This document shows, in pieces, positions 2,659 through 63,141 of a stretch of DNA of 64,000 nt; position 1 is the first letter of the stretch; each line of letters opens with the position of its first letter. Source of the DNA: an uncultured Candidatus Saccharibacteria bacterium (lineage in GTDB: Bacteria; Patescibacteriota; Minisyncoccia; Phycocordibacterales; UBA918); contig CAYXYJ010000003.1 of NCBI GenBank assembly GCA_964469295.1, forward strand, positions 12,595-76,594. The letters are read 5' to 3'. The notes under the pieces were generated by a model that was given only the letters and a program-made list of their open reading frames with translations, made no database searches and had not been told where the DNA came from. Made by a program: the position numbers and the translations under genes.

Positions 2659-3126
2659 GTGTAACTAGTATAGCAATTACTAGATCAAAAACGTCCAATT
2701 ATAATCACCATTACAACAATACCCGCTAGTTTCATGTGCAACATGTACTGAAAACGGCGCTTTTACAATCATTCAAGTATAAATTTAATCTTGTGTATCA
2801 AAACGGCATGATTATTTTAAAAGTTGTCAAAACGAATGGTAACTGCCCAAATGTTTTAAGATAAATCCTGGTTGTTCTACGTGTAACTAGCGTTAATATG
2901 TACCACGTGAAACGTATAATTATGATGCACTATCCACAGCTTTTGCAAAAAAGGGTTTATTTATAAGCATTTTTTTATTGGTATCCTGTCTTTAATCCTT
3001 TGTCCTTTATACACATGTTCACTGTTTTATCCCCACATCAAAATTGCCCTTGTTATTTTGTTGATTGGTTAAACGTTTTCTTAATCATTATAGAAAAAAG
3101 CCCTGTTTAGGACTTTTTTCTGGGTT

Positions 3127-5091: not shown

Positions 5092-6561
5092 ATGATTCGT
5101 TTGACTGATATTCCGCTCGAGGTACGAGTAGTGGCTGAGACATTGGAAGTAGCTGGCTATGAAGCCTATCTCGTCGGCGGATGTGTCCGCGATTTACTCC
5201 TCGGCAAGGTGCCTAAAGATTGGGATATTACCACCGATGCTGTACCAGACGCGATTATAGCGTTGTTCCCCGACAGTTATTGCAATAATGAGTACGGCAC
5301 GGTCGGAGTAAAAACGGAGAGCGAAGACCCACGGCTCTCAGTCATTGAAGTCACCCCGTACCGTAGTGAGGGGGCATACACTGACGCCAGACGGCCAGAC
5401 AGTGTCACCTTTGGGGTGTCCTTATCCGAAGACCTCGCTCGCCGTGATTTTACCGTTAATGCCATCGCCTTTCGAATTCATGACGAAAAAACCGTTGATT
5501 TATATGGGGGAATGAGTGATTTAGAAGCGCGACGATTGCGCGCCGTCGGGAATCCCAATGCACGTTTTGCCGAAGATGCTCTGCGGATGATGCGAGCGGT
5601 GCGATTGGCGGCCGAACTTGATTTTATGATTGATGCCGATACCATGCAGGGGATTTTTAGTAATCGCGACCGGCTGGGACAGATTGCCGTCGAACGAATT
5701 AGTGCGGAATTTTCCAAGCTAGTTTTGTCTGCCACCCCCATGCAAGGCATGGTATTTCTTGAAAAACTTGGCTTATTACCGTTTGTATTACCCGAAATCG
5801 AACCGGCAATTGGGTGTGAACAGGGTGGTATTCATGCCTACGACGTATATGAACACTTACTGCGCACCATGCAAGCCGCTGCAGACAAAGAATATACCCT
5901 CGAAATGCGCTTAGCGGGCTTGTTACATGACATCGGAAAGCCAGCGACCAGGCGCACTGGCGGGAAAAATAAGCATTACACGTTTTTCGGCCATGAAGTG
6001 GTTGGTGCGCGGATGGCCAAAGCCATTCTCGAACGCCTGAAATTCCCGCGAGACACCATTATAACGGTCGAAAAACTGGTACGCTGGCACATGTTTTTTG
6101 CGGATACCGAAGAAATCACTTTATCGGCCGTACGCCGCACGATCACGAGAGTCGGGGAAGACCAAATCGAAAACCTGTTAAATTTACGCGTTTGTGACCG
6201 CATCGGCACCGGACGGCCGAAAGAGCAACCCTTCCGCTTCCGCAAATACAAAGCCATGGTCGACGAAGCCTTGCGTGACCCGATTTCGGTCAAAATGCTT
6301 AAAATGGACGGGAATCGAATTATGGAACTTACCGGCGAAAAACCAGGCCGAAAATTAGGCTTTATTTTGCACGCATTATTAGAAGAAGTGCTCGTTGATC
6401 CCGCCAAAAACACTGATGACTACCTCGCAGCACGCGTGAAAGAGCTCATTGTACTTGATGAAATAACGCTTGAAACGCTTGGCAAAGCCGGTAAAGAGAA
6501 ACAAGCTGAGGAGGAAGAAGCCGCTCTCAAAGCCATCGCCCGCGAGCATAAGGTGGGGTAA
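5092..6561 (+). CDS. cca: tRNA nucleotidyltransferase (CCA-adding enzyme) with HD domain
   Basis: The N-terminal pol-beta-like head has GGCVRDLLLG...DWDITT, and the HD domain has LLHDIGK; 489 aa. Its presence is consistent with nearby tRNAs lacking encoded CCA. Confidence 0.85.
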   Translation: MIRLTDIPLEVRVVAETLEVAGYEAYLVGGCVRDLLLGKVPKDWDITTDAVPDAIIALFPDSYCNNEYGTVGVKTESEDPRLSVIEVTPYRSEGAYTDARRPDSVTFGVSLSEDLARRDFTVNAIAFRIHDEKTVDLYGGMSDLEARRLRAVGNPNARFAEDALRMMRAVRLAAELDFMIDADTMQGIFSNRDRLGQIAVERISAEFSKLVLSATPMQGMVFLEKLGLLPFVLPEIEPAIGCEQGGIHAYDVYEHLLRTMQAAADKEYTLEMRLAGLLHDIGKPATRRTGGKNKHYTFFGHEVVGARMAKAILERLKFPRDTIITVEKLVRWHMFFADTEEITLSAVRRTITRVGEDQIENLLNLRVCDRIGTGRPKEQPFRFRKYKAMVDEALRDPISVKMLKMDGNRIMELTGEKPGRKLGFILHALLEEVLVDPAKNTDDYLAARVKELIVLDEITLETLGKAGKEKQAEEEEAALKAIAREHKVG

Positions 6562-6924
6562 GACTGCAAAAAAGACGAAGAAACCACTGATTGCACAATA
6601 GCGCAATTGGCGGTTTCTTCGGTGAGATTTAATTTTTAAGCAGATTTTCGGCAAGGGACCGCGTGGAATAAAAAATATTTTTAAGAATTAGTATTGGATG
6701 AAATACGAAGAAAACAGCCGGAAAAATTACTAACCGTATATGGACATACGGTGCAGCGATTTTTCCGGCTGTTTTGTGAAGTAGTTCGCCAACAATAAGC
6801 TCTAAAAATAGAAAAAGGCCTGGGGGAATCGAAAGCTGTTACTGCGTAACCGCTACCGGTGCCCCGAGGCCTTTTCGAGCTTTAGTGTGAGGTAATTCCT
6901 CTAATTTGGTGCTACATAGTGTAG

Positions 6925-6954
6925 TTTATAACCAATGATTTAAGCTCTTATAAT
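6925..6954 (+). promoter_or_regulatory. Sigma-70-like promoter (TTTATA - 18 nt - TATAAT) pointing into an ORF-poor region
   Basis: -35 tttata at 6925-6930 and -10 tataat at 6949-6954. No downstream CDS of convincing length. Confidence 0.35.
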
Positions 6955-6959
6955 GTGAG

Positions 6960-7333
6960 AAATCAATGTTGCTTGCATATACATTCGGAAGTCCGTTTCA
7001 GCCGACTTTCGACACTACGTGCAAGAAGATTTCTCGTTGTGGTTGGATCTTCTTAAGTTGTTGAACGTTAGAGTTTTGGAGGTAATCTCTATTTTTTACA
7101 AGGATCTCTTTACGGGGGAGATCCAGGGTTCAGGTCGTAATGTCTTTTATGAACTGAACTCTGGATCTTCCTGCGCGCCCTCTCTGGGCCTGTCACTATA
7201 GTATGTCCTTTATAATTACTCGTAAAGGACAGACCTGTGAGTAATTGGGGATTACTCGGAAAAACTTTGTCCTTTATGCGCAATAATGTTCCTGAAAGCA
7301 AAAAGAGCCTTGCAATGCAAGGCTCTTTTTGCT
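6960..7333 (+). ncRNA. Candidate ~370-nt non-coding transcript of unknown class
   Basis: Bracketed by the promoter above and an intrinsic terminator at 7300-7330 (followed by TTTTT). It is rich in local stem-loops, for example gtcctttat-aattactcg-taaaggac and gagtaat-tgggg-attactc. Only short low-quality ORFs are present. No tmRNA tag frame or RNase P P4 consensus was found. Confidence 0.3.
7300..7330. terminator. Bidirectional intrinsic terminator aaaagagccttgc-aat-gcaaggctctttt
   Basis: A perfect palindrome flanked by A-run and T-run. It serves xth on the minus strand and the candidate ncRNA on the plus strand. Confidence 0.7.
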
Positions 7334-7375
7334 TCCTGTTTCTACTATTGACATTTATGAGTTCTGTATTTTTAT

Positions 7376-8185
7376 TTATTCAGTGGAAATTGGTATATTG
7401 ATGGTTACTGAGATGGGGCAGTGATCTGACCCCAACACCTCCGGATAAATGCGTGCTTGTTGTAGCAATGGTACCAACTGTGAAGACACCATAATGTAAT
7501 CAATCCGCCAACCGATGTTTCGTTCACGTGCGTTGCCCCAGTGTGACCACCACGTATAGTGTCCTGGTTCATCCGGATAATACTGACGAAAGGTGTCCAC
7601 AAACCCAGCGTCTATCATCGCCGTAAAACCAGCTCGTTCTTCGTCAGTGAAACCCTTTTTTCCCGTGTTTTCACGTGGGCGAGCCAAATCCAGCGCCGTG
7701 TGTGCCACGTTAAAATCACCACAATAGATGACGGGCTTTTTGGCTTCTAATTCCACCATATACGCGAGAAACGCTGGGTCCCAGGCTTGGCGCATAGGGA
7801 TACGGGACAGATCGTCTTTGGCATTTGGTGTATAGACGGTCACGACAAAAAAATGTTCAAATTCAAGGGTAGTAATCCGTCCTTCGGTAGTGGTATCGCC
7901 ATAGGAATCGGTTAATGTATACCGTTTGGCAATATGCGTCGGTAATCCGTAAAACACTGTAACGGGGGTGTATTTAGTGAAAATAGCGGTACCAGAATAA
8001 CCCTTTTTAGTCGCTGAACACCAATATTCTTCATATTCCCCAAAGTCGATGTTCGTATCAGATTGCTGTGCTTTGGTTTCTTGCACGCAAAATATGTCTG
8101 GGTTGTGTTTTGCTAAAAAATCAGCAAGGAGACCCTTTTTATGAACGGCTCGGATACCATTGACGTTCCATGAATACAGCTTCAT
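7376..8185 (-). CDS. xth: Exodeoxyribonuclease III / AP endonuclease
   Basis: MKLYSWNVNGIRA...CVQETK...SDHCPI, the EEP-family ExoIII signature; 269 aa. Confidence 0.9.
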   Translation of the reverse strand: MKLYSWNVNGIRAVHKKGLLADFLAKHNPDIFCVQETKAQQSDTNIDFGEYEEYWCSATKKGYSGTAIFTKYTPVTVFYGLPTHIAKRYTLTDSYGDTTTEGRITTLEFEHFFVVTVYTPNAKDDLSRIPMRQAWDPAFLAYMVELEAKKPVIYCGDFNVAHTALDLARPRENTGKKGFTDEERAGFTAMIDAGFVDTFRQYYPDEPGHYTWWSHWGNARERNIGWRIDYIMVSSQLVPLLQQARIYPEVLGSDHCPISVTINIPISTE

Positions 8186-20837: not shown

Positions 20838-20840
20838 GGG

Positions 20841-20883
20841 GAGACCGGGGCGGGCGGCCCTACGGGCCGCCCGCCCCGGTCTC
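20841..20883. terminator. GC-rich perfect palindrome gagaccggggcgggcggccc-tacg-ggccgcccgccccggtctc
   Basis: A 20-bp perfect stem directly after the uvrD stop. Confidence 0.8.
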
Positions 20884-20936
20884 CTCGGTTTGCACCACCC
20901 TAGATACTTTTGGTATGCTGACCATACACAATATAT

Positions 20937-24219: not shown

Positions 24220-26400
24220 ATGTTGTCGCGTCTTTTTGCAAAACCGCTTACCCGCACCATCTGTATTGGGTTTTTTGTCGGAATTTGTTTATTTTTTGTT
24301 GGGACAATCGTCGTTTCGGCCCAAGTTACTCCTAATAGTGACTATCAGGTCGTACAGTGTACAGGTGAGGAATGTTCCAGTGGGCTGCTGAAATGGTTAT
24401 TGGATTTCGTGATTGTGGTATTTGGTAGTTTAGTGGGACTATTCGGTTCTGCTTTTGACTGGTTTATTGGTAATTTTATCATTGATTTTGGCCTTCATTA
24501 TCAATCAAGCAACTTCGGGGCAGTGATTGACGGAGTCTGGTCGACTGTTCGGGATATTTTCAATTTGACTTTTATTTTTGGTCTTATATATATCGGTTTT
24601 CAAATTATTTTGGGTACCAATGATTCTCAGGCCAAAAAAACCATTCCCATGTTGATTTTGGCGGCTCTCCTCGTTAATTTCAGTCTCTTTATTACCAAAT
24701 TTATCGTAGATTTTTCCAATATCGCTGCAGTGGAGGTCTATCAATTATTTGAAAGTTCAGCGAATGCCTATGGTAGTAGCGTTGGTGGCTATGGCGGAGC
24801 CAGTATTTCGCAAGCCTTTATGAATGCCCTCGGTATCTCTTCGCTTTTTGGTCAATTACCAGCCGGAGCAGAGTTGCTCTACATTTTTGGCATGCTGATT
24901 GTGTTTTTAGTCCTTATTTATGTGTTTCTGGCCGGCGCCATTTTAATTGCTATCCGGTTTGCAATGTTATCTTTGTACCTTGTATTTTCACCCGTAATGT
25001 TTATTGGGTGGGTATTTCCAGGATTTAATAAATATCAACAACAATTTTGGAGTGGATTCTTAGGTCAAGCATTTTTTGCTCCGGCGTTTTTATTCATGTT
25101 GTATTTGTCTTACCAAATTGTCTCGACATTTAGCGGAGATACTCACACTAATTTTAATACATTAACTGTTAGCAATGGGAGCACCGTTACGAGTGGATTT
25201 TTGGCGGTAATGCCACTATTTTTAATGACGGTGGTTTTTTTACTCGCTTCTATGGCTGTCGCCAAAGGCATGAGTCGCCAAGGCTCAGAATACGCGGTCA
25301 AAGGCGTTGATTGGATGTACAAAAAGGGAATGGGTGCGGTGAAGGGTGCCGGGCAAGCAGTTTCTTATGTCCCACGTGCTGGTGCACGATATGGAGTTAA
25401 TAAAACTGGCGAATGGAGTGAAAAGAAACTTAATAGTCTGCAAGCACGGGATGGAAAATTAGGTAAACTATTAAGTACAAACGCCGTGGATAAAGCGTTG
25501 AGAGGTGGAACAACAAAAATGCAGAAAGCCGAAATGGGTACGGGTACTACAAACAAAGCCGAGAAGGAATATAGAGCAATTACCACTAACCGTAATGCGG
25601 GTCTACAAGAAAAGAAGTCTCGTGAAGCGGCGATTGCTACCGCCGCGGCGAATTTTGCTGAACTTGATGCGTTACGCAATAAACCAAACCGTACTAATAA
25701 TGAAACAAATCGATTAATTTCTCTTGAAACTGAGGCTGCTCAAGCTCAAAATTATATTAATCAACTTGACAAGGGTGAAATCGAAAAACTCGACAAAACT
25801 ACGCGTAAGGCATACGCAACTAAATTTAATGCCGATCAAATGAAACATATTCTCGATAGCGAGAAAATTACAAATGACGAAAAGGAATCAATTATTGAAG
25901 CCCGAAGAGAGAAAATTAGAAACAACACGACATCACCTGGCAACATCATGAAGTTGACTCGCGACGAACTTGAGACATTGGGATTTGATTGGATGACAAA
26001 TAATGTCCAGAATTTAACACACTCTCAATTTGATGATTATATTAAAAACAATAAAAAACTCACTCCTGAATTAGTTAATTCATTCAAGTCAGTTAGAGAA
26101 TCGAAGATTTTGCAATCCATTGAAGACGGCTCTGCGGGTGGTTTACTGACCGAATTGAAAAAGAAACCAAAAGAATTTGCTCAGTTACCCAAACAAGTTT
26201 TCACAGATAGACGCTATGTAAATATTATCCCTTACCTGACCGTTGGAGTACTTGAACAAATTGCGCACGAGAGAATTCTTGATCAAAATCAACGGTTTGC
26301 TATAAAAGGATTTTTGACTCATGGCGGACGCGGTAGTACCCCAACTGAAGTGATTGCATATTTAAGTTCAGATAAAGGAAAAGAATATTATGGACCATAA
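24220..26400 (+). CDS. Polytopic membrane protein, VirB6/TrbL-like candidate, with long C-terminal coiled-coil extension
   Basis: A signal/TM segment and at least six TM helices fill the first ~350 aa. A ~370-aa charged coiled-coil tail follows. GGAGG RBS 8 nt upstream. The architecture is that of VirB6-like channel subunits, but sequence similarity cannot be verified here. Confidence 0.4.
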   Translation: MLSRLFAKPLTRTICIGFFVGICLFFVGTIVVSAQVTPNSDYQVVQCTGEECSSGLLKWLLDFVIVVFGSLVGLFGSAFDWFIGNFIIDFGLHYQSSNFGAVIDGVWSTVRDIFNLTFIFGLIYIGFQIILGTNDSQAKKTIPMLILAALLVNFSLFITKFIVDFSNIAAVEVYQLFESSANAYGSSVGGYGGASISQAFMNALGISSLFGQLPAGAELLYIFGMLIVFLVLIYVFLAGAILIAIRFAMLSLYLVFSPVMFIGWVFPGFNKYQQQFWSGFLGQAFFAPAFLFMLYLSYQIVSTFSGDTHTNFNTLTVSNGSTVTSGFLAVMPLFLMTVVFLLASMAVAKGMSRQGSEYAVKGVDWMYKKGMGAVKGAGQAVSYVPRAGARYGVNKTGEWSEKKLNSLQARDGKLGKLLSTNAVDKALRGGTTKMQKAEMGTGTTNKAEKEYRAITTNRNAGLQEKKSREAAIATAAANFAELDALRNKPNRTNNETNRLISLETEAAQAQNYINQLDKGEIEKLDKTTRKAYATKFNADQMKHILDSEKITNDEKESIIEARREKIRNNTTSPGNIMKLTRDELETLGFDWMTNNVQNLTHSQFDDYIKNNKKLTPELVNSFKSVRESKILQSIEDGSAGGLLTELKKKPKEFAQLPKQVFTDRRYVNIIPYLTVGVLEQIAHERILDQNQRFAIKGFLTHGGRGSTPTEVIAYLSSDKGKEYYGP

Positions 26401-34706: not shown

Positions 34707-35042
34707 TTAGCGCGATTTACTGATTCGCGCGAGAAGCCCGACTAATTCGGTCTGTAATATCAGTCGATTGGCTTTACTGGCACCGGGTTTATATAACACT
34801 ATTACTACTCCAGTTGGTATGCTAGCAACATTGTTAGCAAGTGTGCCATACGCTCGGCGGCGGAGCTTATTTCGCACTACGGCTCGTTTGGATACCTTTT
34901 TACTGACAACAACACTGAATTTTGCCAATTCATGCGGGACAAAAACGACCGATTGCCATTGACCATGAAAACGGAGGGCGTCGCGTTTGGTAAAAAAATT
35001 GCTAAACTCCAAACGAGAGAGACGGGCAGAACGAGCAAACAT
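34707..35042 (-). CDS. rnpA: Ribonuclease P protein component
   Basis: 111 aa; KKVSKRAVVRNKLRRRAYG is the RNR motif of RnpA; between rpmH and yidC. Confidence 0.8.
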   Translation of the reverse strand: MFARSARLSRLEFSNFFTKRDALRFHGQWQSVVFVPHELAKFSVVVSKKVSKRAVVRNKLRRRAYGTLANNVASIPTGVVIVLYKPGASKANRLILQTELVGLLARISKSR

Positions 35043-35568: not shown

Positions 35569-36975
35569 ATGCTTGGTACGTTACCTTCCTGTATGCAACC
35601 AACCACTCATCAACCAACAAACAGCATCGTCCGTACCGAACAGATTGACGTAAAAAAACTGTGGGATGATGCGTTGGTAAAAATTGAGTTGGGAATTACT
35701 CCCGCTAATTTCAAAACTTGGTTTCGCGATACTCAAATTATTTCACTTGAAGATGGTACTCTCACGATTGGTGTGCCTAGTGTCTTTGTACGTGATTGGT
35801 TGCAAGACAAATTTCAATCAATGATTTTAAAAACTCTCCGTGAATTAACTCCCTATGTGCGGAGCCTCGAATATGCCGTGGTACAACGGAGTGATCGACG
35901 GACAGAAACTACTAAGACTCAAACCATCAACGCTGCGTTGCCACTTGAAGATTATTACATCAATAAAAGTGATAACTTAAATCCAAAATATTCTTTTGAA
36001 AATTTTGTGGTTGGTCCCTACAATGCACTGGCTCACGCTGCGGCCAAAACTGTATCGGAAAAACCTGGTATTGCTTATAATCCACTGTTTATTTATGGAA
36101 AAACCGGTCACGGTAAAACTCACTTGATTCAAGCGGTGGGTAATCAAATCAAAAAAACTGGCAAAAAAGTATTTTATGTAACCAGTGAACGCTTTGCAGT
36201 TGATTATTTTAATGCCCTCCAAAGTGGCAGTGCCAATAGTTTCAAAGATAAATACCGCCAATATGATGTTCTCATCATGGACGATGTACAATTTTTAGCC
36301 ACCAAGGAAAAAACTCAAGAGGAATTGTTTCATCTTTTTAATGCTCTCCATGATACGAACAAACAAATCGTTTTCTCGAGTGATATGCACCCAGCATTAT
36401 TATCTGGCATGGAAGATCGATTGCGATCGCGGTTTGCTCAGGGAATGATTGTTGATATTCCAACCCCAGACACCGAATCCCGCGCCGCGATTTTGCGTGC
36501 CAAAGCGGCCCAAAACAGCATTACTTTAAGTGACGATGTAGTGGAACACCTCGCCACCACCATCGAAGGAAATATCCGTGAACTAGAGGGGGCGTTAAAT
36601 ACTATTATGTGTCAGTCACAACTACTTGGTCGGACACTTACGATTGATGAAGTAAAAGCTATCATCAAAAACAGCTCTCGTCCGCGCAAAACCCTCGCAG
36701 TTGGGGATGTGGTTGATAAAGTGGCTCGGTTTTTCGACATCGACGCGGCCAGTATTTACGAAAAAACCAGACGAAAAGAAGTAGTGAAGCCCCGACAAAT
36801 TATCATGTTTATTTTACGGGAAGACTTCCAGGTATCATATCCCGCCATTGGTAAAAAATTAGGTGGTCGCGACCACACCACAGTTATTCATTCCTGTGAA
36901 AAAATTAAACACGATATCAAACTTGATAAAGAACTTGAAGAGGAAATTACCCAAGTGCGATTACTCCTTAAATAA
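35569..36975 (+). CDS. dnaA: Chromosomal replication initiator protein DnaA
   Basis: AAA+ core GKTGHGKTHL, LIMDDVQFL, and C-terminal DNA-binding helix ...MFILREDFQVSYPAIGKKLGGRDHTTVIHSCEKI. The annotated start lies 7 nt after a -10 box, so the true start may be the ATG at 35593. Confidence 0.95.
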   Translation: MLGTLPSCMQPTTHQPTNSIVRTEQIDVKKLWDDALVKIELGITPANFKTWFRDTQIISLEDGTLTIGVPSVFVRDWLQDKFQSMILKTLRELTPYVRSLEYAVVQRSDRRTETTKTQTINAALPLEDYYINKSDNLNPKYSFENFVVGPYNALAHAAAKTVSEKPGIAYNPLFIYGKTGHGKTHLIQAVGNQIKKTGKKVFYVTSERFAVDYFNALQSGSANSFKDKYRQYDVLIMDDVQFLATKEKTQEELFHLFNALHDTNKQIVFSSDMHPALLSGMEDRLRSRFAQGMIVDIPTPDTESRAAILRAKAAQNSITLSDDVVEHLATTIEGNIRELEGALNTIMCQSQLLGRTLTIDEVKAIIKNSSRPRKTLAVGDVVDKVARFFDIDAASIYEKTRRKEVVKPRQIIMFILREDFQVSYPAIGKKLGGRDHTTVIHSCEKIKHDIKLDKELEEEITQVRLLLK

Positions 36976-37354: not shown

Positions 37355-38449
37355 ATGAAAGTAACGGTCAATCAACAAGAACTCATCAACACCCTTGAAC
37401 TCTTAACACGGGTGAGTACCAAACACGTCACCTTACCTGTGTTGCAGTGTGTTCATATTAAAACGTTTGATACGAAAATAGTTTGTACTACCACCAATCT
37501 TGAAATTAGTATTGAATCACCAGTAACAGCAACCGTAATCGAAGCTGGTGTGGTAGCGGTCTACGCACAAACTTTATTACAGTCAATTCAATATAATACC
37601 CAAAAAGACATCACCTTAACGGCAGTTGATGGGGTGTTAAAAATTGAAAGTGGGCGAAGTGTTACAAAAATTAATACAATGGTGGCTGATGATTTTCCGA
37701 TTATTACTCACCTTGAAACCACAGGGGTGATGGTAAAAAGACAAACATTTGCTCTTGGTATTAAAACTGTTGCTTTCGCAGCGTCGGTATCATCTATTAA
37801 GCCAGAATTAGGAAGTGTCTTTATTCAACAAAAAAAAGAACATTCCCTTACCTTTGTAGCGACTGATTCATTTCGTTTAATGGAAAAAACCGTGCCACAA
37901 CAAGGGGTGATATTATCACAATCGCTTCTCGTTCCACAAAAAAATGCGATTGAATTAGCGCGGGTGTGTGAGGTGTTAACGGAAGATCCTGAACTTCTGG
38001 TTACTGATAATCAATGTGCTTTACGGTTTCCGAATGGGGTGTATGTTATTTCTCGCTTGGTAGCAGGAACTTTCCCTGATTATGAAGCAATTATTCCAAA
38101 AGAATATACCACTCATGTAACAGTGTTAAAACAAGACTTGGTGCAGTGTTTTAAAAAGACACAAATTTTCTTAAATAAATTTATGCAGGTGACTCTTGGA
38201 GTGTCTGATGGATCTTTGTTAGTATCGTCTCAAAACGGTGAATTAGGTACTACCGAAGATGTTGTGCGTGTGGATACTGAGGGATCTCCGTTAACACTTA
38301 ATTTTAATCAGCAGTACGTTCTTGATCCACTTTCACATATTACCGACGACAGTATTGTTTTACATTTTGCTGGGATTGGCAGACCGTTGGTATTAGGAGG
38401 GGTGGCTGATATATCTTTGCGGTATTTAGTGATGCCGATGAATCGATAA
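37355..38449 (+). CDS. dnaN: DNA polymerase III beta subunit (sliding clamp)
   Basis: 364 aa with three-domain clamp organisation. N-terminus MKVTVNQQELINTLELLTRV. Position immediately after dnaA. Confidence 0.9.
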   Translation: MKVTVNQQELINTLELLTRVSTKHVTLPVLQCVHIKTFDTKIVCTTTNLEISIESPVTATVIEAGVVAVYAQTLLQSIQYNTQKDITLTAVDGVLKIESGRSVTKINTMVADDFPIITHLETTGVMVKRQTFALGIKTVAFAASVSSIKPELGSVFIQQKKEHSLTFVATDSFRLMEKTVPQQGVILSQSLLVPQKNAIELARVCEVLTEDPELLVTDNQCALRFPNGVYVISRLVAGTFPDYEAIIPKEYTTHVTVLKQDLVQCFKKTQIFLNKFMQVTLGVSDGSLLVSSQNGELGTTEDVVRVDTEGSPLTLNFNQQYVLDPLSHITDDSIVLHFAGIGRPLVLGGVADISLRYLVMPMNR

Positions 38450-43275: not shown

Positions 43276-43296
43276 AAAGTAAGCATACCACGGAGT

Positions 43297-43330
43297 AAAA
43301 AGCGTGGGGCCTAAAGGCCCCACGCTTTTT
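43297..43330. terminator. Hairpin aaaagcgtggggcc-taaa-ggccccacgctttt between yebC and ruvC
   Basis: A perfect 14-bp stem. Possibly a partial terminator or attenuator inside the yebC-ruvC unit. Confidence 0.55.
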
Positions 43331-43880
43331 ACTCAATCTCTTCTTCCGTGCTATCAGCAGTGGTGAAAATTTCCTGTACGTCTTCTTGTTCTTCAATCGC
43401 TTCGATTAATGAGGCCAGCTTTTCGCCATCAGCATCAGACAGTTCAAGCGGATTTTGTGGAATATACCCGTCAGCCGTTTTGGTAAAAGCCCACATCGCT
43501 GTGCCAGGTGTGCCCAAGGTGAGTCCTTGTTTGGTAAAGATGTGGCGAATTTCGGGCGATGTGCGGTTGTTATTGTCCGTGACGGCAGTAATAATCATCG
43601 CGACGCCACCGGGGCCGAAGGCTTCAAAGACCACCTCTTCGAGATTGGCGCCGCCCGCGCCGGCACCTTTGGCGACGGCGCGATCAATGTTCTCTTTGGG
43701 CATAGAATCTTTTTTGGCCCGGTCAATCACTGCAATCAGTCCTGGTGAGGTCAGGTTCCCGTTACATTTGCGCGATTCCATGGCAATCAAGGCCGCGTGT
43801 TTGCTAAATACCTTACTCTTCTGTGCATCGGTCGCCGCTTTCTTGTGTTTAATCTTTGACCATTTGTTATGTCCACTCAT
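43329..43880 (-). CDS. YebC/PmpR-family probable transcriptional regulatory protein (short variant)
   Basis: MSGHNKWSKIKHKKAATDAQKSKVF... is the YebC N-terminus. At 183 aa it appears to lack roughly 60 aa of the usual middle region. Confidence 0.75.
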   Translation of the reverse strand: MSGHNKWSKIKHKKAATDAQKSKVFSKHAALIAMESRKCNGNLTSPGLIAVIDRAKKDSMPKENIDRAVAKGAGAGGANLEEVVFEAFGPGGVAMIITAVTDNNNRTSPEIRHIFTKQGLTLGTPGTAMWAFTKTADGYIPQNPLELSDADGEKLASLIEAIEEQEDVQEIFTTADSTEEEIE

Positions 43881-45432: not shown

Positions 45433-45479
45433 AAACGACAAACGCGGACGGCCCAAAGGGCCGTCCGCGTTTGTCGTTT
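45433..45479. terminator. Terminator aaacgacaaacgcggacggccc-aaa-gggccgtccgcgtttgtcgttt
   Basis: A perfect 22-bp palindrome directly after the pilB stop. Confidence 0.8.
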
Positions 45480-62519: not shown

Positions 62520-62534
62520 TCGATAAAGAGCACA

Positions 62535-62583
62535 ACTATAACCGAAGAGCCGCCGGGCTTGCCCGGCGGCTCTTCGGTTATAG
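62535..62583. terminator. 49-nt perfect palindrome ctataaccgaagagccgccgggc-ttg-cccggcggctcttcggttatag
   Basis: Lies between convergent giant gene 2 and ruvA. Shares the 22-nt core gccgccgggcttgcccggcggc with the hairpin at 50151-50174. Confidence 0.8.
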
Positions 62584-63141
62584 TTGTTGCAAGGCTGCTT
62601 TCACCAGAGTGGTAGTGCTGGCGTTTTGATCCATCGTGTCGAGCACCTGCCGTACTGATTGAGGATTGTATCCAAGTGCGAGCAAAGTATCAAAAGCATC
62701 CTGATACTGTGCATTTTTTATACCGGTAATTGGTGTCGCGATGATGGCGGTGTCAATTTTATCCTTGAGACCAAGGATAATTTTCTCGGCTGTTTTGCGA
62801 CCAAGACCAGCTAACGTGACTAACTGATCCGCATCATTGTTGCTCACTGCGGTCAAAATAAGCGTGCGGTCGGCTTTATCCAAAATATCCATAGCTGATT
62901 TTGGTCCAATTCCCGAGATGGTGAGTAATAACTCAAAAATTTCTAAATCATGTGGCGTGACAAATCCATACAAATCGTCAGCGGTTTCTCGTAGTGCGTG
63001 GTGGGTGTAGAGAGTCACGGTGTCGTGGGGGAGTAGTGCCGTTCGTTTCGGACACGTAACCAGATACCCTACACCGCTTCCGGTCATAATAACGGTTTCA
63101 GGGATGGTTTCTATGACGGTACCAGTGAGTCGACGAATCAT
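62578..63141 (-). CDS. ruvA: Holliday junction DNA helicase RuvA
   Basis: MIRRLTGTV... OB-fold N-domain, helix-hairpin-helix pair (ISGIGPKSAMDIL, LAGLGRKTAEKII), and C-terminal domain III. The track start at 63237 would overlap rpsT, so the internal Met at 63141 is preferred. Confidence 0.8.
   Translation of the reverse strand: MIRRLTGTVIETIPETVIMTGSGVGYLVTCPKRTALLPHDTVTLYTHHALRETADDLYGFVTPHDLEIFELLLTISGIGPKSAMDILDKADRTLILTAVSNNDADQLVTLAGLGRKTAEKIILGLKDKIDTAIIATPITGIKNAQYQDAFDTLLALGYNPQSVRQVLDTMDQNASTTTLVKAALQQL

Follow-up and report, generated by a model that had tools for sequence, protein, structure and literature searches.

Background

OLE, ROOL, GOLLD and the raiA motif are RNAs of several hundred nucleotides that have covarying helices, invariant single-stranded blocks, a restricted range, and their own promoter and terminator. 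As to transcriptional control, the mioC, dnaA and nrdAB promoters of Escherichia coli are regulated through DnaA boxes. The genomes of CPR/Patescibacteria are tiny, with non-coding DNA being scarce, and, to our knowledge, the regulatory RNAs of these organisms are almost wholly uncharacterized. Our literature search found no report of a Patescibacteria RNA of the kind described here. The ncRNA CcnA of Caulobacter crescentus has a CCCC hairpin loop that is proposed to pair with G-rich ribosome-binding sites (PMC8959179), and the RsaE and RoxS sRNAs of Firmicutes use C-rich motifs to pair with G-rich Shine-Dalgarno regions (PMC6158497, PMC5419742).

We analyzed an 814-bp gap at positions 6562-7375 of a 64-kb stretch of DNA from a candidate-phyla (Patescibacteria) bacterium (hereafter, the window; all positions are in plus-strand numbering). 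In our best explanation, which we regard as likely, this gap contains an independently transcribed, structured ncRNA gene of ~385 nt on the minus strand, from 7191 to ~6804, that is under DnaA/operator control and acts in trans. The predicted RNA resembles CcnA in that it is a stand-alone ncRNA, its promoter carries, in relatives, motifs for a master regulator of replication or the cell cycle, and it has a C-rich loop. However, the CcnA gene is located within the origin and its regulator is CtrA, whereas the Paceibacteria RNA is 28 kb from the dnaA-linked origin and is associated with DnaA-box motifs; it is also about twice as long and far more folded, and the two have no shared sequence or Rfam relationship. 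With RsaE and RoxS the RNA shares several exposed C-rich motifs (CCCCUU, ACCUCC and CCCACCC), but those sRNAs measure 100-115 nt, as against ~385 nt here, and the new RNA has no Rfam match and belongs to a host that is almost devoid of Shine-Dalgarno (SD) sites. In size, helices, invariant blocks, lineage restriction and possession of a promoter and terminator it is similar to OLE, ROOL, GOLLD and the raiA motif, from which it differs in lacking an Rfam match, in its association with the cca-xth slot and a DnaA-box promoter, and in its rapid turnover between clades. Its promoter is comparable to those of mioC, dnaA and nrdAB in that a consensus TTATCCACA box is fixed beside the core promoter in relatives; however, its predicted product is an ncRNA, and the box is joined to an inverted repeat with CIRCE-like geometry.

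The cca-xth intergenic region

A preliminary description of the locus, made from the letters of the sequence, reported a gene-free gap between convergent cca and xth genes, and Pfam domains bear this out. The left flank, cca (5092-6561, plus strand), encodes a CCA-adding enzyme with PolyA_pol, HD, PolyA_pol_RNAbd and tRNA_NucTran2_2 domains, and the right flank, xth (7376-8185, minus strand), encodes a member of the exodeoxyribonuclease III family with an Exo_endo_phos domain. Long perfect hairpins are common in this DNA: the 64 kb contain 20 with arms of at least 16 nt, mostly at gene ends. Directly 3' of the cca stop codon is a hairpin (6576-6621, plus strand; 19-nt arms, 84% complementary) that is among the terminator-like structures listed and is probably the cca terminator; relatives carry an unrelated hairpin in the same spot. 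At the other end of the gap, a perfect palindrome of 19 bp (7296-7334), which has T-runs on either strand, is positioned to terminate xth, and unrelated palindromes adjoin xth in relatives. This palindrome had been described as a terminator at 7300-7330 that ends a plus-strand ncRNA. The palindrome exists, but its position fits, and it most likely is, the terminator of xth.

Between the cca hairpin and the conserved RNA lies a nested palindromic element (6676-6810). Its outer arms (6676-6697 and 6789-6810) enclose an inner helix (6711-6727 and 6759-6775) and an apical hairpin (6733-6752). The inner helix had been reported as a perfect helix of 18 bp; the helix is real but comprises 17 bp, as the last base of the proposed pairing is a G, not a C. 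The hairpin that was noted inside it is present and has 8 bp. The same architecture occurs with other stem sequences in some relatives (e.g., L005, L006, L011, L026, L033, L035 and L036), with only weak sequence similarity to the element of L006, while it is absent from L007, L010, L012, L017 and L028 and a different repeat is found in other relatives. We considered this element as a second conserved ncRNA and rejected the idea, since only some relatives carry it and other repeats replace it elsewhere; for this reason we treat it as an accessory element.

A conserved, predicted RNA on the minus strand

Our comparison set consisted of 80 related Paceibacteria genome loci, found via cca, and at least 120 metagenome contigs. 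A segment 3' of cca, which we call type 1, has nhmmer matches in 32 related loci, whose CCA enzymes are 64-85% identical. A covariance model of this segment (R1) gives one full-length match per locus in these 32 loci and the window, always on the minus strand. Paceibacteria MAGs with type 1 include JBKBPM010000002.1 and JACKGE010000001.1, and type 1 is also carried by the 486-kb and 549-kb contigs of L034 and L059. In the window, the type-1 gene extends over 6804-7191 (~385 nt), and at its two boundaries are a promoter and a terminator that are themselves conserved. RNA-like constraint ends at 7191, and positions 7192-7290 behave as a promoter/operator. The predicted 5' end is the A of AGGCCCAGAG at 7191, and the 3' end is expected in the T-run that follows a GC-rich hairpin, at 6804-6816. 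Among viral contigs there were 16 matches to the 16-mer, all attributable to chance, and none fits the RNA profile.

Comparison of the gap in relatives also sheds light on the preliminary description, which had placed a ~370-nt plus-strand transcript at 6955-7330, downstream of the promoter TTTATA-18-TATAAT (6925-6954). The suggestion that the gap encodes an unclassified ncRNA was right in kind, as the conserved, structured RNA has neither an Rfam match nor a conserved ORF; what did not hold up was the anatomy, i.e., the strand, the promoter and the ends. The observations are thus partly confirmed and their interpretation partly supported. The promoter-like hexamers at 6925-6954 are present once, where 1.7 sites are expected in shuffled sequences, are kept only in the closest relatives and overlap helix H5 of the minus-strand RNA (see below). 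The plus-strand transcript is likewise unsupported.

Folding energy is a poor guide to the strand. The region is far more stably folded than shuffled sequences, with z-scores of -9.4 and -9.7 for the plus strand and of -6.0 for the minus strand; when the two strands are compared, however, MFE z-scores are equal (-7.4 vs -7.1). Although raw MFE favors the plus strand in 28 of 29 sequences, we rejected a strand call on this basis: the raw difference is an effect of G+U composition and, with equal z-scores, folding energy is uninformative on strand. The count of wobble pairs (G.U versus A.C) gives 94.7% pairing for the minus strand, compared to 88.6% for the plus strand. A conserved A.C in H2, and others in the terminator, argue against the minus strand, as they would be G.U on the plus strand. 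The comparative evidence as a whole indicates that the RNA is read from the minus strand, opposite to the original proposal.

The type-1 RNA and its counterparts in relatives are large, multi-helix RNAs of 350-540 nt, and the predicted product of the locus ranges overall from ~190 to 540 nt. Between clades of one class, the transcribed sequence shares almost nothing while the promoter persists. In distant relatives, the same promoter precedes RNAs that have UUCG or UCCG tetraloops and terminators on the promoter-driven strand.

Secondary structure and covariation

We assessed covariation domain by domain over the 385-nt RNA. Our model has six helical elements, all on the minus strand, and compensatory changes are found in at least five helices over ~385 nt. 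The 5'-terminal hairpin H1 (7177-7189; GCCC-AGAGA-GGGC) lies inside the near-invariant start AGGCCCAGAGAGGGCG. It is invariant in 28 of 28 sequences and, having no variation, is a predicted structure only. H2 (7111-7176) is a long irregular hairpin with a variable tip and takes in the region 7116-7171; it has indels and is missing in some homologues. Across H1 and H2, 15 of 22 pairs change on both sides, and 94.7% of cells are paired versus 82.9% in shuffled alignments, with none of 500 shuffles reaching 94.7%.

The hairpin H3 (7069-7091) has the invariant loop UUACCUCCA(A)n, in which ACCUCC is the complement of 7078-7083. Among 29 sequences there are 15 distinct Watson-Crick stems around this one unchanged loop, and the invariant alignment columns are T108, A109 and C111-C114. 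A C-rich linker containing CCAACCAC (CCCACCC in relatives) precedes H4 (6957-7035), a long hairpin, GAGAAAUC...GAUUUCUC, that varies in its interior and covaries in its outer stem; G.U pairs occur in H4 in eight sequences, on the minus strand only. H5 (6877-6949) is a three-way junction closed by the stem GAGCUU/AAGCUC and containing hairpins at 6906-6935 and 6889-6901. Unconstrained MFE folding yields this topology in 20 of 20 homologues that differ in sequence.

The last element, H6 (6804-6871), is a predicted intrinsic terminator. It incorporates a GC helix that the preliminary description had correctly recognized (in our analysis, 6813-6842 and 6846-6875, 30-nt arms, 80% complementary). 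As expected of a Rho-independent terminator, a GC-rich hairpin at 6817-6871, whose stem pairs covary, is followed on the minus strand by TTTTTCTATTTTT, within the T-run UUUUUCUAUUUUU (6804-6816). At least six T in the 9 nt after the GC hairpin are found in 32 of 33 loci on the minus strand versus 9 of 25 on the plus strand. Both MFE and consensus folds consist of a string of separate hairpins, without an end-to-end stem.

Searches for known RNAs and coding potential

We searched the sequences with the 4227 models of Rfam 15, which include tmRNA, RNase P, 6S, SRP, OLE, ROOL, GOLLD, raiA and RsaE. Four tRNAs were the only findings over the whole 64-kb window. The gap matches no family at the gathering threshold, and at E<=10 gives only sub-threshold miRNA or terminator-like noise. 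In 11 related loci only tRNAs were found, and one distant homologue gave nothing at E<=10. ARAGORN detected no tmRNA in the window. Together with the lack of any conserved reading frame, these results agree with the earlier remark that the gap has no tmRNA tag frame or tRNA-like end. A segment, CCUGCUCGCCCUCUCUGGG, resembles the part of E. coli tmRNA after the tag, and GGGUUCGAAUC in one relative also prompted the idea of a tmRNA. We rejected it, given the negative ARAGORN and Rfam results and a supposed T-loop that is a variable hairpin tip.

RNase P RNA was considered in view of GGGUAGGC and AGAUGA in distant homologues. It was rejected: there is no match to RNaseP_bact_a or RNaseP_bact_b at E<=10 in the gap or the distant homologue, the spacing is wrong and variation within the family is too great. 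We looked for the CR-I and CR-V motifs by eye only. As for 6S RNA, the MFE and consensus folds contain no end-to-end closing stem, and no Rfam 6S match was found. No ORF is conserved on either strand: across 29 homologues, the longest ones vary in where they lie, in length (11-97 amino acids) and in sequence.

Promoter, putative operator and DnaA-box motifs

Upstream of the RNA is a sigma-70-type promoter (7192-7231, minus strand) with the -10 hexamer TACTAT (7198-7203), a 17-nt spacer and the -35 hexamer TTTACG (7221-7226). It is found in 65 loci in addition to the window. Among these 66, the -35 hexamer is TTTACA in 54 and TTTAC(A/G) in 64, the spacer is 17 nt in 53, and the -10 hexamer varies as TAnnnT, with variants as expected of a real -10 hexamer. 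The invariant part of the RNA begins 7 nt past the -10. The hexamers of this element, their spacing (16-18 nt is typical of such promoters) and its place at the predicted start of the conserved transcript are those of a sigma-70-type promoter.

An inverted repeat, O1, spans the interval from -35 to -10 (7204-7231, minus strand) and is formed by TGTCCTTTA (7204-7212) and TAAAGGACA (7223-7231). The putative operator inverted repeat can be written ATGTCCTTTA...TAAAGGACAT, with arms of ~10 bp that are 8-9 bp apart. An upstream half-site, O2, again TGTCCTTTA, is located at 7268-7276; many relatives have a full palindrome, TGTCCTTTATAAAGGACA, and an O2-like site is upstream in 54 of 65 promoters. 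These sites explain the nested repeats that had been noted in the gap. The copies exist: TGTCCTTTAT is at 7204 and 7268, recurs with 90% identity at 7141 and is inverted at 7223-7231, and ATTACTCG is at 7215 and 7251; however, the repeats at 7204-7276 are not part of the transcript, but belong to the promoter/operator and DnaA-box region upstream of the RNA.

Just upstream of the -35, two tandem 9-mers resembling DnaA boxes, TAATCCCCA and TTACTCACA, occupy 7237-7254 on the minus strand. Our criterion for a DnaA box was a 9-mer with at most one mismatch to TTATCCACA, which we applied to the 65 promoters of relatives, which had not been selected for the box. The best match has no mismatch in 32 promoters, one in 25 and two in 8, so that 57 of the 65 have at most one mismatch. 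The position of the motif is fixed, at -14 or -24 from GTCC, just upstream of the -35, and it occurs in one orientation only. In the window, each 9-mer matches at 7 of 9 positions, and because both boxes carry two mismatches, DnaA control may be weak or lost there.

The module of promoter, operator and DnaA box is the sole part common to about 150 loci, and in other clades it occurs in both orientations relative to cca; conservation of the promoter extends over at least 150 contigs. A second cluster, comprising a DnaA-like box and TGTCCTTTA, is located 4 kb away at 2930-3040. We also considered the TGTCCTTTA repeat as a dif/recombinase core site or an inverton, an idea prompted by its 11-bp arms, its 7-8-bp spacer and the presence of xerC adjoining xth in relatives. 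We set this aside, as the repeat extends across the -35/-10 spacer and no terminus is anywhere near it. An oriC or bipartite origin had been suggested by the DnaA boxes, by tandem GTTCTTT 11-mers similar to 13-mer DUE repeats, and by a switch in gene orientation near 4-8 kb. We rejected this idea too, given that there are only one or two boxes and that the skew minima and dnaA-dnaN lie elsewhere. In the 64-kb window, cumulative skew reaches its minimum at 32.3 kb for G-C and at 37.9 kb for T-A; rpmH-rnpA-yidC precede dnaA (35569-36975) and dnaN (37355-38449). The dnaA-linked origin is thus ~28 kb from the RNA gene.

Candidate function and alternative explanations

The H3 loop UUACCUCCA copies the anti-SD core, to which it is identical, not complementary. 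An exposed C-rich loop is typical of one functional class of sRNAs, and here UUACCUCCA is presented as a loop closed by 15 different stems. In the host, an SD-like site is found at only 4 of 47 genes, while in most of them a -10 box precedes the ATG by 6-8 nt, such that translation appears to be largely leaderless; the -10 type of the RNA promoter precedes most genes in the window. An RNAduplex scan against 48 gene starts in the window yielded only long, meaningless duplexes, and the one start that carries GGAGGU (the gene at 24220) is within chance expectation. Because the host is almost SD-less and largely leaderless, a general anti-SD action is doubtful. Our best guess for the function is a DnaA-coupled, trans-acting RNA that works via C-rich loops. 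Under this hypothesis, the sigma-70-type promoter would start the RNA at the invariant AGGCCCAGAGAGGGCG, the GC-rich hairpin and T-run would end it, and its amount would be set by DnaA and an operator-binding protein. The RNA would act in trans through invariant single-stranded C-rich elements, mainly the UUACCUCCA loop but also CCCACCC and CCCCUU, which may pair with G-rich sites of the GGAGG type on the few leadered mRNAs or on another RNA. It is important to emphasize that actual transcription, DnaA binding, the operator protein and trans-acting base-pairing are our inferences from sequence.

The same minus-strand RNA could instead be a protein-binding scaffold or decoy, e.g., with its anti-SD-like loop and C-rich linkers mimicking the 16S rRNA 3' tail and titrating a ribosome-associated or RNA-processing protein. 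A length of 350-540 nt and a conserved multi-helix architecture point to an RNP RNA more than to a seed-type sRNA, the loop copies the anti-SD core and is not its complement, and mRNA targets are few since SD sites are hardly used in the genome. We nonetheless consider a scaffold unlikely: no protein candidate is tied to the locus, the orientation of cca and xth relative to the RNA varies, and the RNA lacks conservation at the level of the class, which is unusual for the partner of a conserved protein. Less probable still, in our view, is the hypothesis that the DNA control region (DnaA boxes, TGTCCTTTA operator and strong promoter) is the selected feature, serving DnaA titration or sensing or transcription itself, with the RNA being secondary. 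In the case of mioC and gid next to oriC in E. coli, transcription itself matters. What speaks for such a role is that the module is all that the about 150 loci have in common, the transcribed sequences being almost entirely different from one clade to the next, and that a second cluster of a DnaA-like box with TGTCCTTTA exists at 2930-3040. In the wider class, turnover of the RNA with a constant promoter fits an RNA function no better than it fits a function of transcription or of the DNA site. Yet a by-product would not be constrained as strongly as the type-1 RNA is, with its unchanging blocks and at least five helices that show compensatory change, and only one or two DnaA boxes are present, with oriC placed 28 kb away by the skew minima and the gene order rpmH-rnpA-yidC|dnaA-dnaN.

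The remaining explanations concern what the gap encodes. We find the originally proposed ~370-nt plus-strand ncRNA, from TTTATA-18-TATAAT to the palindrome at 7296-7334, very improbable. Its hexamers and terminator-like palindrome do exist, the plus strand folds with z = -9.4 and the conserved A.C in H2 would become G.U, but the promoter is at chance level and unconserved, many loci lack a plus-strand T-run behind the GC helix, positions 7192-7290 behave as a promoter/operator and the wobble count favors the minus strand. It is harder still to envisage a divergent housekeeping RNA (RNase P RNA, tmRNA, 6S or SRP RNA) that Rfam models miss. The size would suit RNase P RNA or tmRNA, short resemblances by eye (GGGUAGGC and AGAUGA in distant homologues) point the same way, and the presence of rnpA (34707-35042) implies that an RNase P RNA must exist, though its lack in the 64-kb window means little because the window covers only a small fraction of the genome. 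Such an RNA is contradicted by the lack of any Rfam match at E<=10 and of a tmRNA according to ARAGORN, by unpaired 5' and 3' ends, and by a family that ranges from ~190 to 540 nt with almost no sequence shared between clades, unlike any universal RNA. Least credible is a small protein gene hidden in the gap. ORFs of 60 (7019-7201, plus strand) and 63 amino acids (7110-7301, minus strand) and a perfect SD-like GGAGGU at 7078-7083 on the plus strand would be compatible with one; however, the longest ORFs in 29 homologues are unconserved, H2 has indels or is absent, and GGAGGU falls in the loop position of a covarying hairpin and is followed by no conserved start codon.

Implications

The locus is a case in which an 814-bp gap is retained in a very small, gene-dense genome and harbors a large, covarying RNA outside Rfam 15. 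It also illustrates that strand and boundaries predicted from sequence alone can be inverted, and that annotation therefore needs comparative data. More speculatively, and with a good deal of doubt on our part, the cca-xth slot across Paceibacteria might contain a DnaA-box/operator promoter that drives fast-evolving structured RNAs, in this case a ~385-nt RNA that displays an anti-SD sequence in a mostly leaderless organism and couples DnaA status to translation or the ribosome. If this were true, the RNA would belong to a new class, which might, for example, titrate SD-led mRNAs or a factor binding to the 16S 3' tail. Confirmation of the RNA would provide a new structured RNA family for the annotation of Patescibacteria genomes, a test case for an anti-SD-like loop in largely leaderless translation, and a candidate tie between replication initiation and post-transcriptional control in organisms not yet grown alone.

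A conserved RNA gene on the minus strand

The gap at 6562-7375 lies between cca (5092-6561, plus strand) and xth (7376-8185, minus strand). Pfam domains bear out both flanks, as the preliminary description had them, and its proposal of an unclassified ncRNA in this gap also stands: the gap holds a conserved, structured ncRNA gene that is absent from Rfam 15. We gathered relatives by a scan with the CCA enzyme, which yielded 80 loci of 49-85% protein identity, all 80 from Patescibacteria MAGs (labels Parcubacteria, Paceibacteria, Kaiserbacteria and Nomurabacteria). With the gap as query, BLASTN and nhmmer found positions ~6946-7290 to be conserved 3' of cca in 32 loci. The CCA enzymes of those 32 loci are just 64-85% identical, a distance at which neutral intergenic DNA would have been randomised, and this segment is conserved nonetheless. 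Its most conserved block, 7192-7290, is present in more distant loci too, where it faces either way with respect to cca. A covariance model of the RNA's 5' domain found exactly one full-length copy in each of the 32 loci and in the window, all on the minus strand, with four of the matched loci outside the model seed; on the distant loci it gave no match. A search of both strands for a conserved ORF found none. A Patescibacteria-type cca and this RNA, which we call type 1, also occur in two MAGs that bear the labels Gammaproteobacteria (L006) and Acidimicrobiales (L026); these labels probably reflect mis-binning or mislabelling in public records.

The strand, promoter and boundaries given in the preliminary description were wrong. 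It had proposed a plus-strand transcript from a TTTATA-18-TATAAT promoter at 6925-6954, but such promoters occur at chance level (1 found, 1.7 expected), and this one sits within the minus-strand RNA and is conserved in the closest relatives only. Read on the minus strand, 7192-7290 is a sigma-70-type promoter. Of its 66 instances, one is the window's and 65 come from related loci; the -35 element is TTTACA in 54, TTTACG in 10 and TTTACC in 2, and a 17-nt spacer separates it from the -10 in 53. The -10 takes the forms TACTAT, TATAAT, TAGTAT, TACAAT, TAATAT and TAAAAT; its positions T1, A2 and T6 are constant while the middle ones drift, which is how a true -10 hexamer behaves. A near-invariant AGGCCCAGAGAGGGCG begins 7 nt past the -10. 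In the window, the -35 lies at 7221-7226 and the -10 at 7198-7203, both on the minus strand, and their position predicts transcription to start at 7191.

A conserved long hairpin, rich in GC and with a minus-strand T-run behind it, marks the end of every homologue (in the window, hairpin 6817-6871 and T-run 6804-16). At least six T in the nine nucleotides after the hairpin are found in 32 of 33 loci on the minus strand versus 9 of 25 on the plus strand. The covarying 5' helices contain 48 G.U cells versus 13 A.C cells, and 94.7% of their cells are paired when read as minus strand versus 88.6% as plus; in the outer stem of H4, a long hairpin of the RNA, eight sequences have G.U pairs that exist on the minus strand alone. 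The strands cannot be told apart by folding energy: the MFE is lower on the plus strand because that strand is G+U-rich, and the z-scores are equal (-7.4 versus -7.1). Each half of the gap folds much more stably than shuffled sequence (z about -9.5 for the plus strand, about -6 for the minus strand). We therefore place the predicted RNA on the minus strand, from about 7191 to 6804. Its length in relatives is 350-540 nt.

Predicted fold of the type-1 RNA

The predicted fold comprises six helical elements, H1 to H6, numbered from the 5' end. H1, at the very 5' end, is an invariant GCCC/GGGC hairpin, and because of this invariance its structure rests on prediction. H2 is a long, irregular hairpin whose tip varies; G.U, A-U<->C-G and G-C pairs close it. 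For H1 and H2 together, 94.7% of cells are paired, versus 82.9% after shuffling, and 15 of 22 pairs have changed on both sides; none of 500 shuffles reached the observed values, and at most 53% of cells pair with partners slid. A single-stranded linker, CCUUAAAGAG-G(A/U)UC(N)UU, leads to H3, a hairpin with a variable stem (15 distinct Watson-Crick versions in 29 sequences) and a constant loop, U(U/A)ACCUCC(A)n, in all. The next linker, ..GUUCAUAAC..CCCACCC, precedes H4, GAGAA(A/G)UC.../...GAUUUCUC. H5 is a three-way junction with a closing stem GAGCUU/AAGCUC and two hairpins, a topology that unconstrained folding returned in 20 of 20 sequences. H6 is the terminator hairpin, and its pairs covary.

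Control region and distribution across the class

In relatives, one or two putative DnaA-box motifs lie 5' of the -35. The 65 promoters in related loci were selected through cca alone and are thus unbiased as to DnaA boxes; their best match to TTATCCACA has no mismatch in 32, one in 25 and two in 8. From the start of the box to GTCC the distance is 14 nt in 33 cases and 24 nt in 13, and the box occurs solely in the RNA's orientation, the reverse never falling below two mismatches. The window's two tandem sites, TTACTCACA and TAATCCCCA at 7237-7254, are degenerate. An inverted repeat, ATGTCCTTTA-N8-9-TAAAGGACAT, covers the -35 to -10 interval, and an additional copy, often a full palindrome TGTCCTTTATAAAGGACA, lies 5' of the promoter in 54 of 65; this geometry suggests a dimeric DNA-binding protein. 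The repeats TGTCCTTTAT and ATTACTCG at 7204-7276, previously assigned to the RNA, are present but belong to this promoter and control region.

A second cluster, 4 kb from the RNA promoter at 2930-3040, lies in a 468-bp gap, rich in AT, that is flanked by a UPF0102 gene and tRNA-Gly. It has a perfect TGTCCTTTA (3001-3009) and three near-consensus DnaA boxes (CTATCCACA at 2930, TTATACACA at 3007 and TTATCCCCA at 3027); no promoter of the RNA locus's architecture was seen there.

A metagenome scan found the module GTAAAGGACA-N3-9-TGTGGATAAC in at least 120 contigs; in nearly all of those listed it is flanked by cca and xth and points either way. The promoter-driven RNAs have very different sequences (at least 148 unique, median 276 nt among the matches listed). 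One type of ~190 nt starts with CAGACCAAC; another of ~420 nt starts with CAGACCAGUUUGUCAUCCGAGGUGAUCGC, and on the strand that the promoter drives it has UUCG/UCCG tetraloops and terminators. GUUCUUU is on the transcribed strand in 80 of 148 RNAs versus the other strand in 7, among the matches listed. It is often doubled, 11 nt apart (GTTC-N7-GTTC), within the first ~100 nt of the RNAs (L040-L200); its type-1 counterpart is the G(A/U)UC(N)UU 3' of UUAAAGA. It may be a protein-binding site in the RNA or a DNA site shortly past the start. Promoter and slot are thus class-wide, and the RNA evolves fast between clades; inside the type-1 clade, the RNA is tightly constrained. One metagenome contig (L194) has two promoter/operator modules, at 3120 and 3560, 440 bp apart, each preceding its own predicted terminator-capped transcript.

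Other elements of the gap

A hairpin directly 3' of the cca stop codon (6576-6621) is probably the cca terminator. The hairpin at 7296-7334, formerly read as the ncRNA's terminator, is a 19-bp perfect palindrome with T-runs on both sides, but it is placed to terminate xth; relatives carry unrelated palindromes at this position. Long perfect hairpins are frequent at gene ends of this genome (20 in 64 kb) and are probably bidirectional terminators. Their stems are 17-27 bp and their loops 1-4 nt (e.g., 62532-62587, 45433-45479, 20840-20884 and 43293-43334).

The "18-bp" perfect helix reported earlier exists (6711-6727/6759-6775) but has 17 bp, the last base having been wrong; its inner hairpin (6733-6752) and the GC helix, a GC-rich long hairpin at 6813-6875, are present as described. 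The 17-bp helix is part of a nested palindromic element, 6676-6810, whose architecture is kept with other stems in a subset of relatives and is missing in others, and which we treat as accessory. In seven loci (L005, L006, L011, L026, L033, L035 and L036) the nested element lies directly past the RNA terminator, with conserved ends UUGGCGAACUACUUC ... UUCUUCG (minus strand) and covarying stems. Seven others (L019, L022, L023, L025, L029, L030 and L034) have a different repeat family instead, starting GUAGCGACUAUU. Such elements seem to accumulate in the region 3' of cca.

Candidate identities and possible function

In the Rfam scan, neither the window nor any of 11 related loci gave a family at threshold, and at E<=10 the gap and one distant homologue gave only sub-threshold miRNA or terminator-like noise. 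ARAGORN finds no tmRNA. The locus is not an obvious housekeeping RNA, being too variable between clades for a universal one; with rnpA and rpmH present, the genome must encode an RNase P RNA somewhere. The locus is not oriC either: rpmH-rnpA-yidC|dnaA-dnaN occupies 34-38.4 kb, and cumulative skew is lowest at 32.3 kb (G-C) and 37.9 kb (T-A). Nor is it viral, the viral-contig matches to the 5' 16-mer being at chance level. Nearly all genes at 8-34 kb (8204-33945) are on the plus strand, head-on to a fork from a dnaA-linked origin, and left of 4 kb all are on the minus strand; with the skew minimum lying at ~32-38 kb, GC skew thus indicates another place than gene orientation does.

Sequence comparison shows a conserved transcription unit, delimited by motifs, together with its strand, its fold and a promoter that bears DnaA-box motifs. 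We propose that DnaA and an operator-binding protein would tune transcription of the RNA, which may act in trans via its invariant exposed C-rich elements, chiefly the UUACCUCCA loop, which would pair with GGAGG-type sequences. The C-rich loops of CcnA (PMC8959179) and of RsaE/RoxS (PMC6158497, PMC5419742) work in this manner, by pairing with G-rich sequences. However, among all 47 larger ORFs of the window (e.g., those at 5092, 8204, 15534, 29984 and 30676), an SD-like site precedes just 4, whereas a TAnnnT -10 box, of the same kind as the RNA's, lies 6-8 nt 5' of the start codon (ATG) in most. This suggests that the organism translates mainly leaderless mRNAs, and general anti-SD action of the RNA is therefore unlikely. 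The same scarcity of SD-like sites makes it a serious alternative that the RNA is a decoy or scaffold, mimicking the 16S 3' tail. We also keep alive the reading in which what is conserved is the control region as DNA, or the act of transcription, as the RNA sequence turns over near-completely between clades; the constraint on the RNA pertains to the type-1 clade.

We found no description of such an RNA in the searched literature. It is a new family of a known kind of element, the stand-alone bacterial ncRNA, with unusual traits: a class-wide DnaA-box/operator promoter, a fixed syntenic slot and an anti-SD-like loop in an SD-poor genome.
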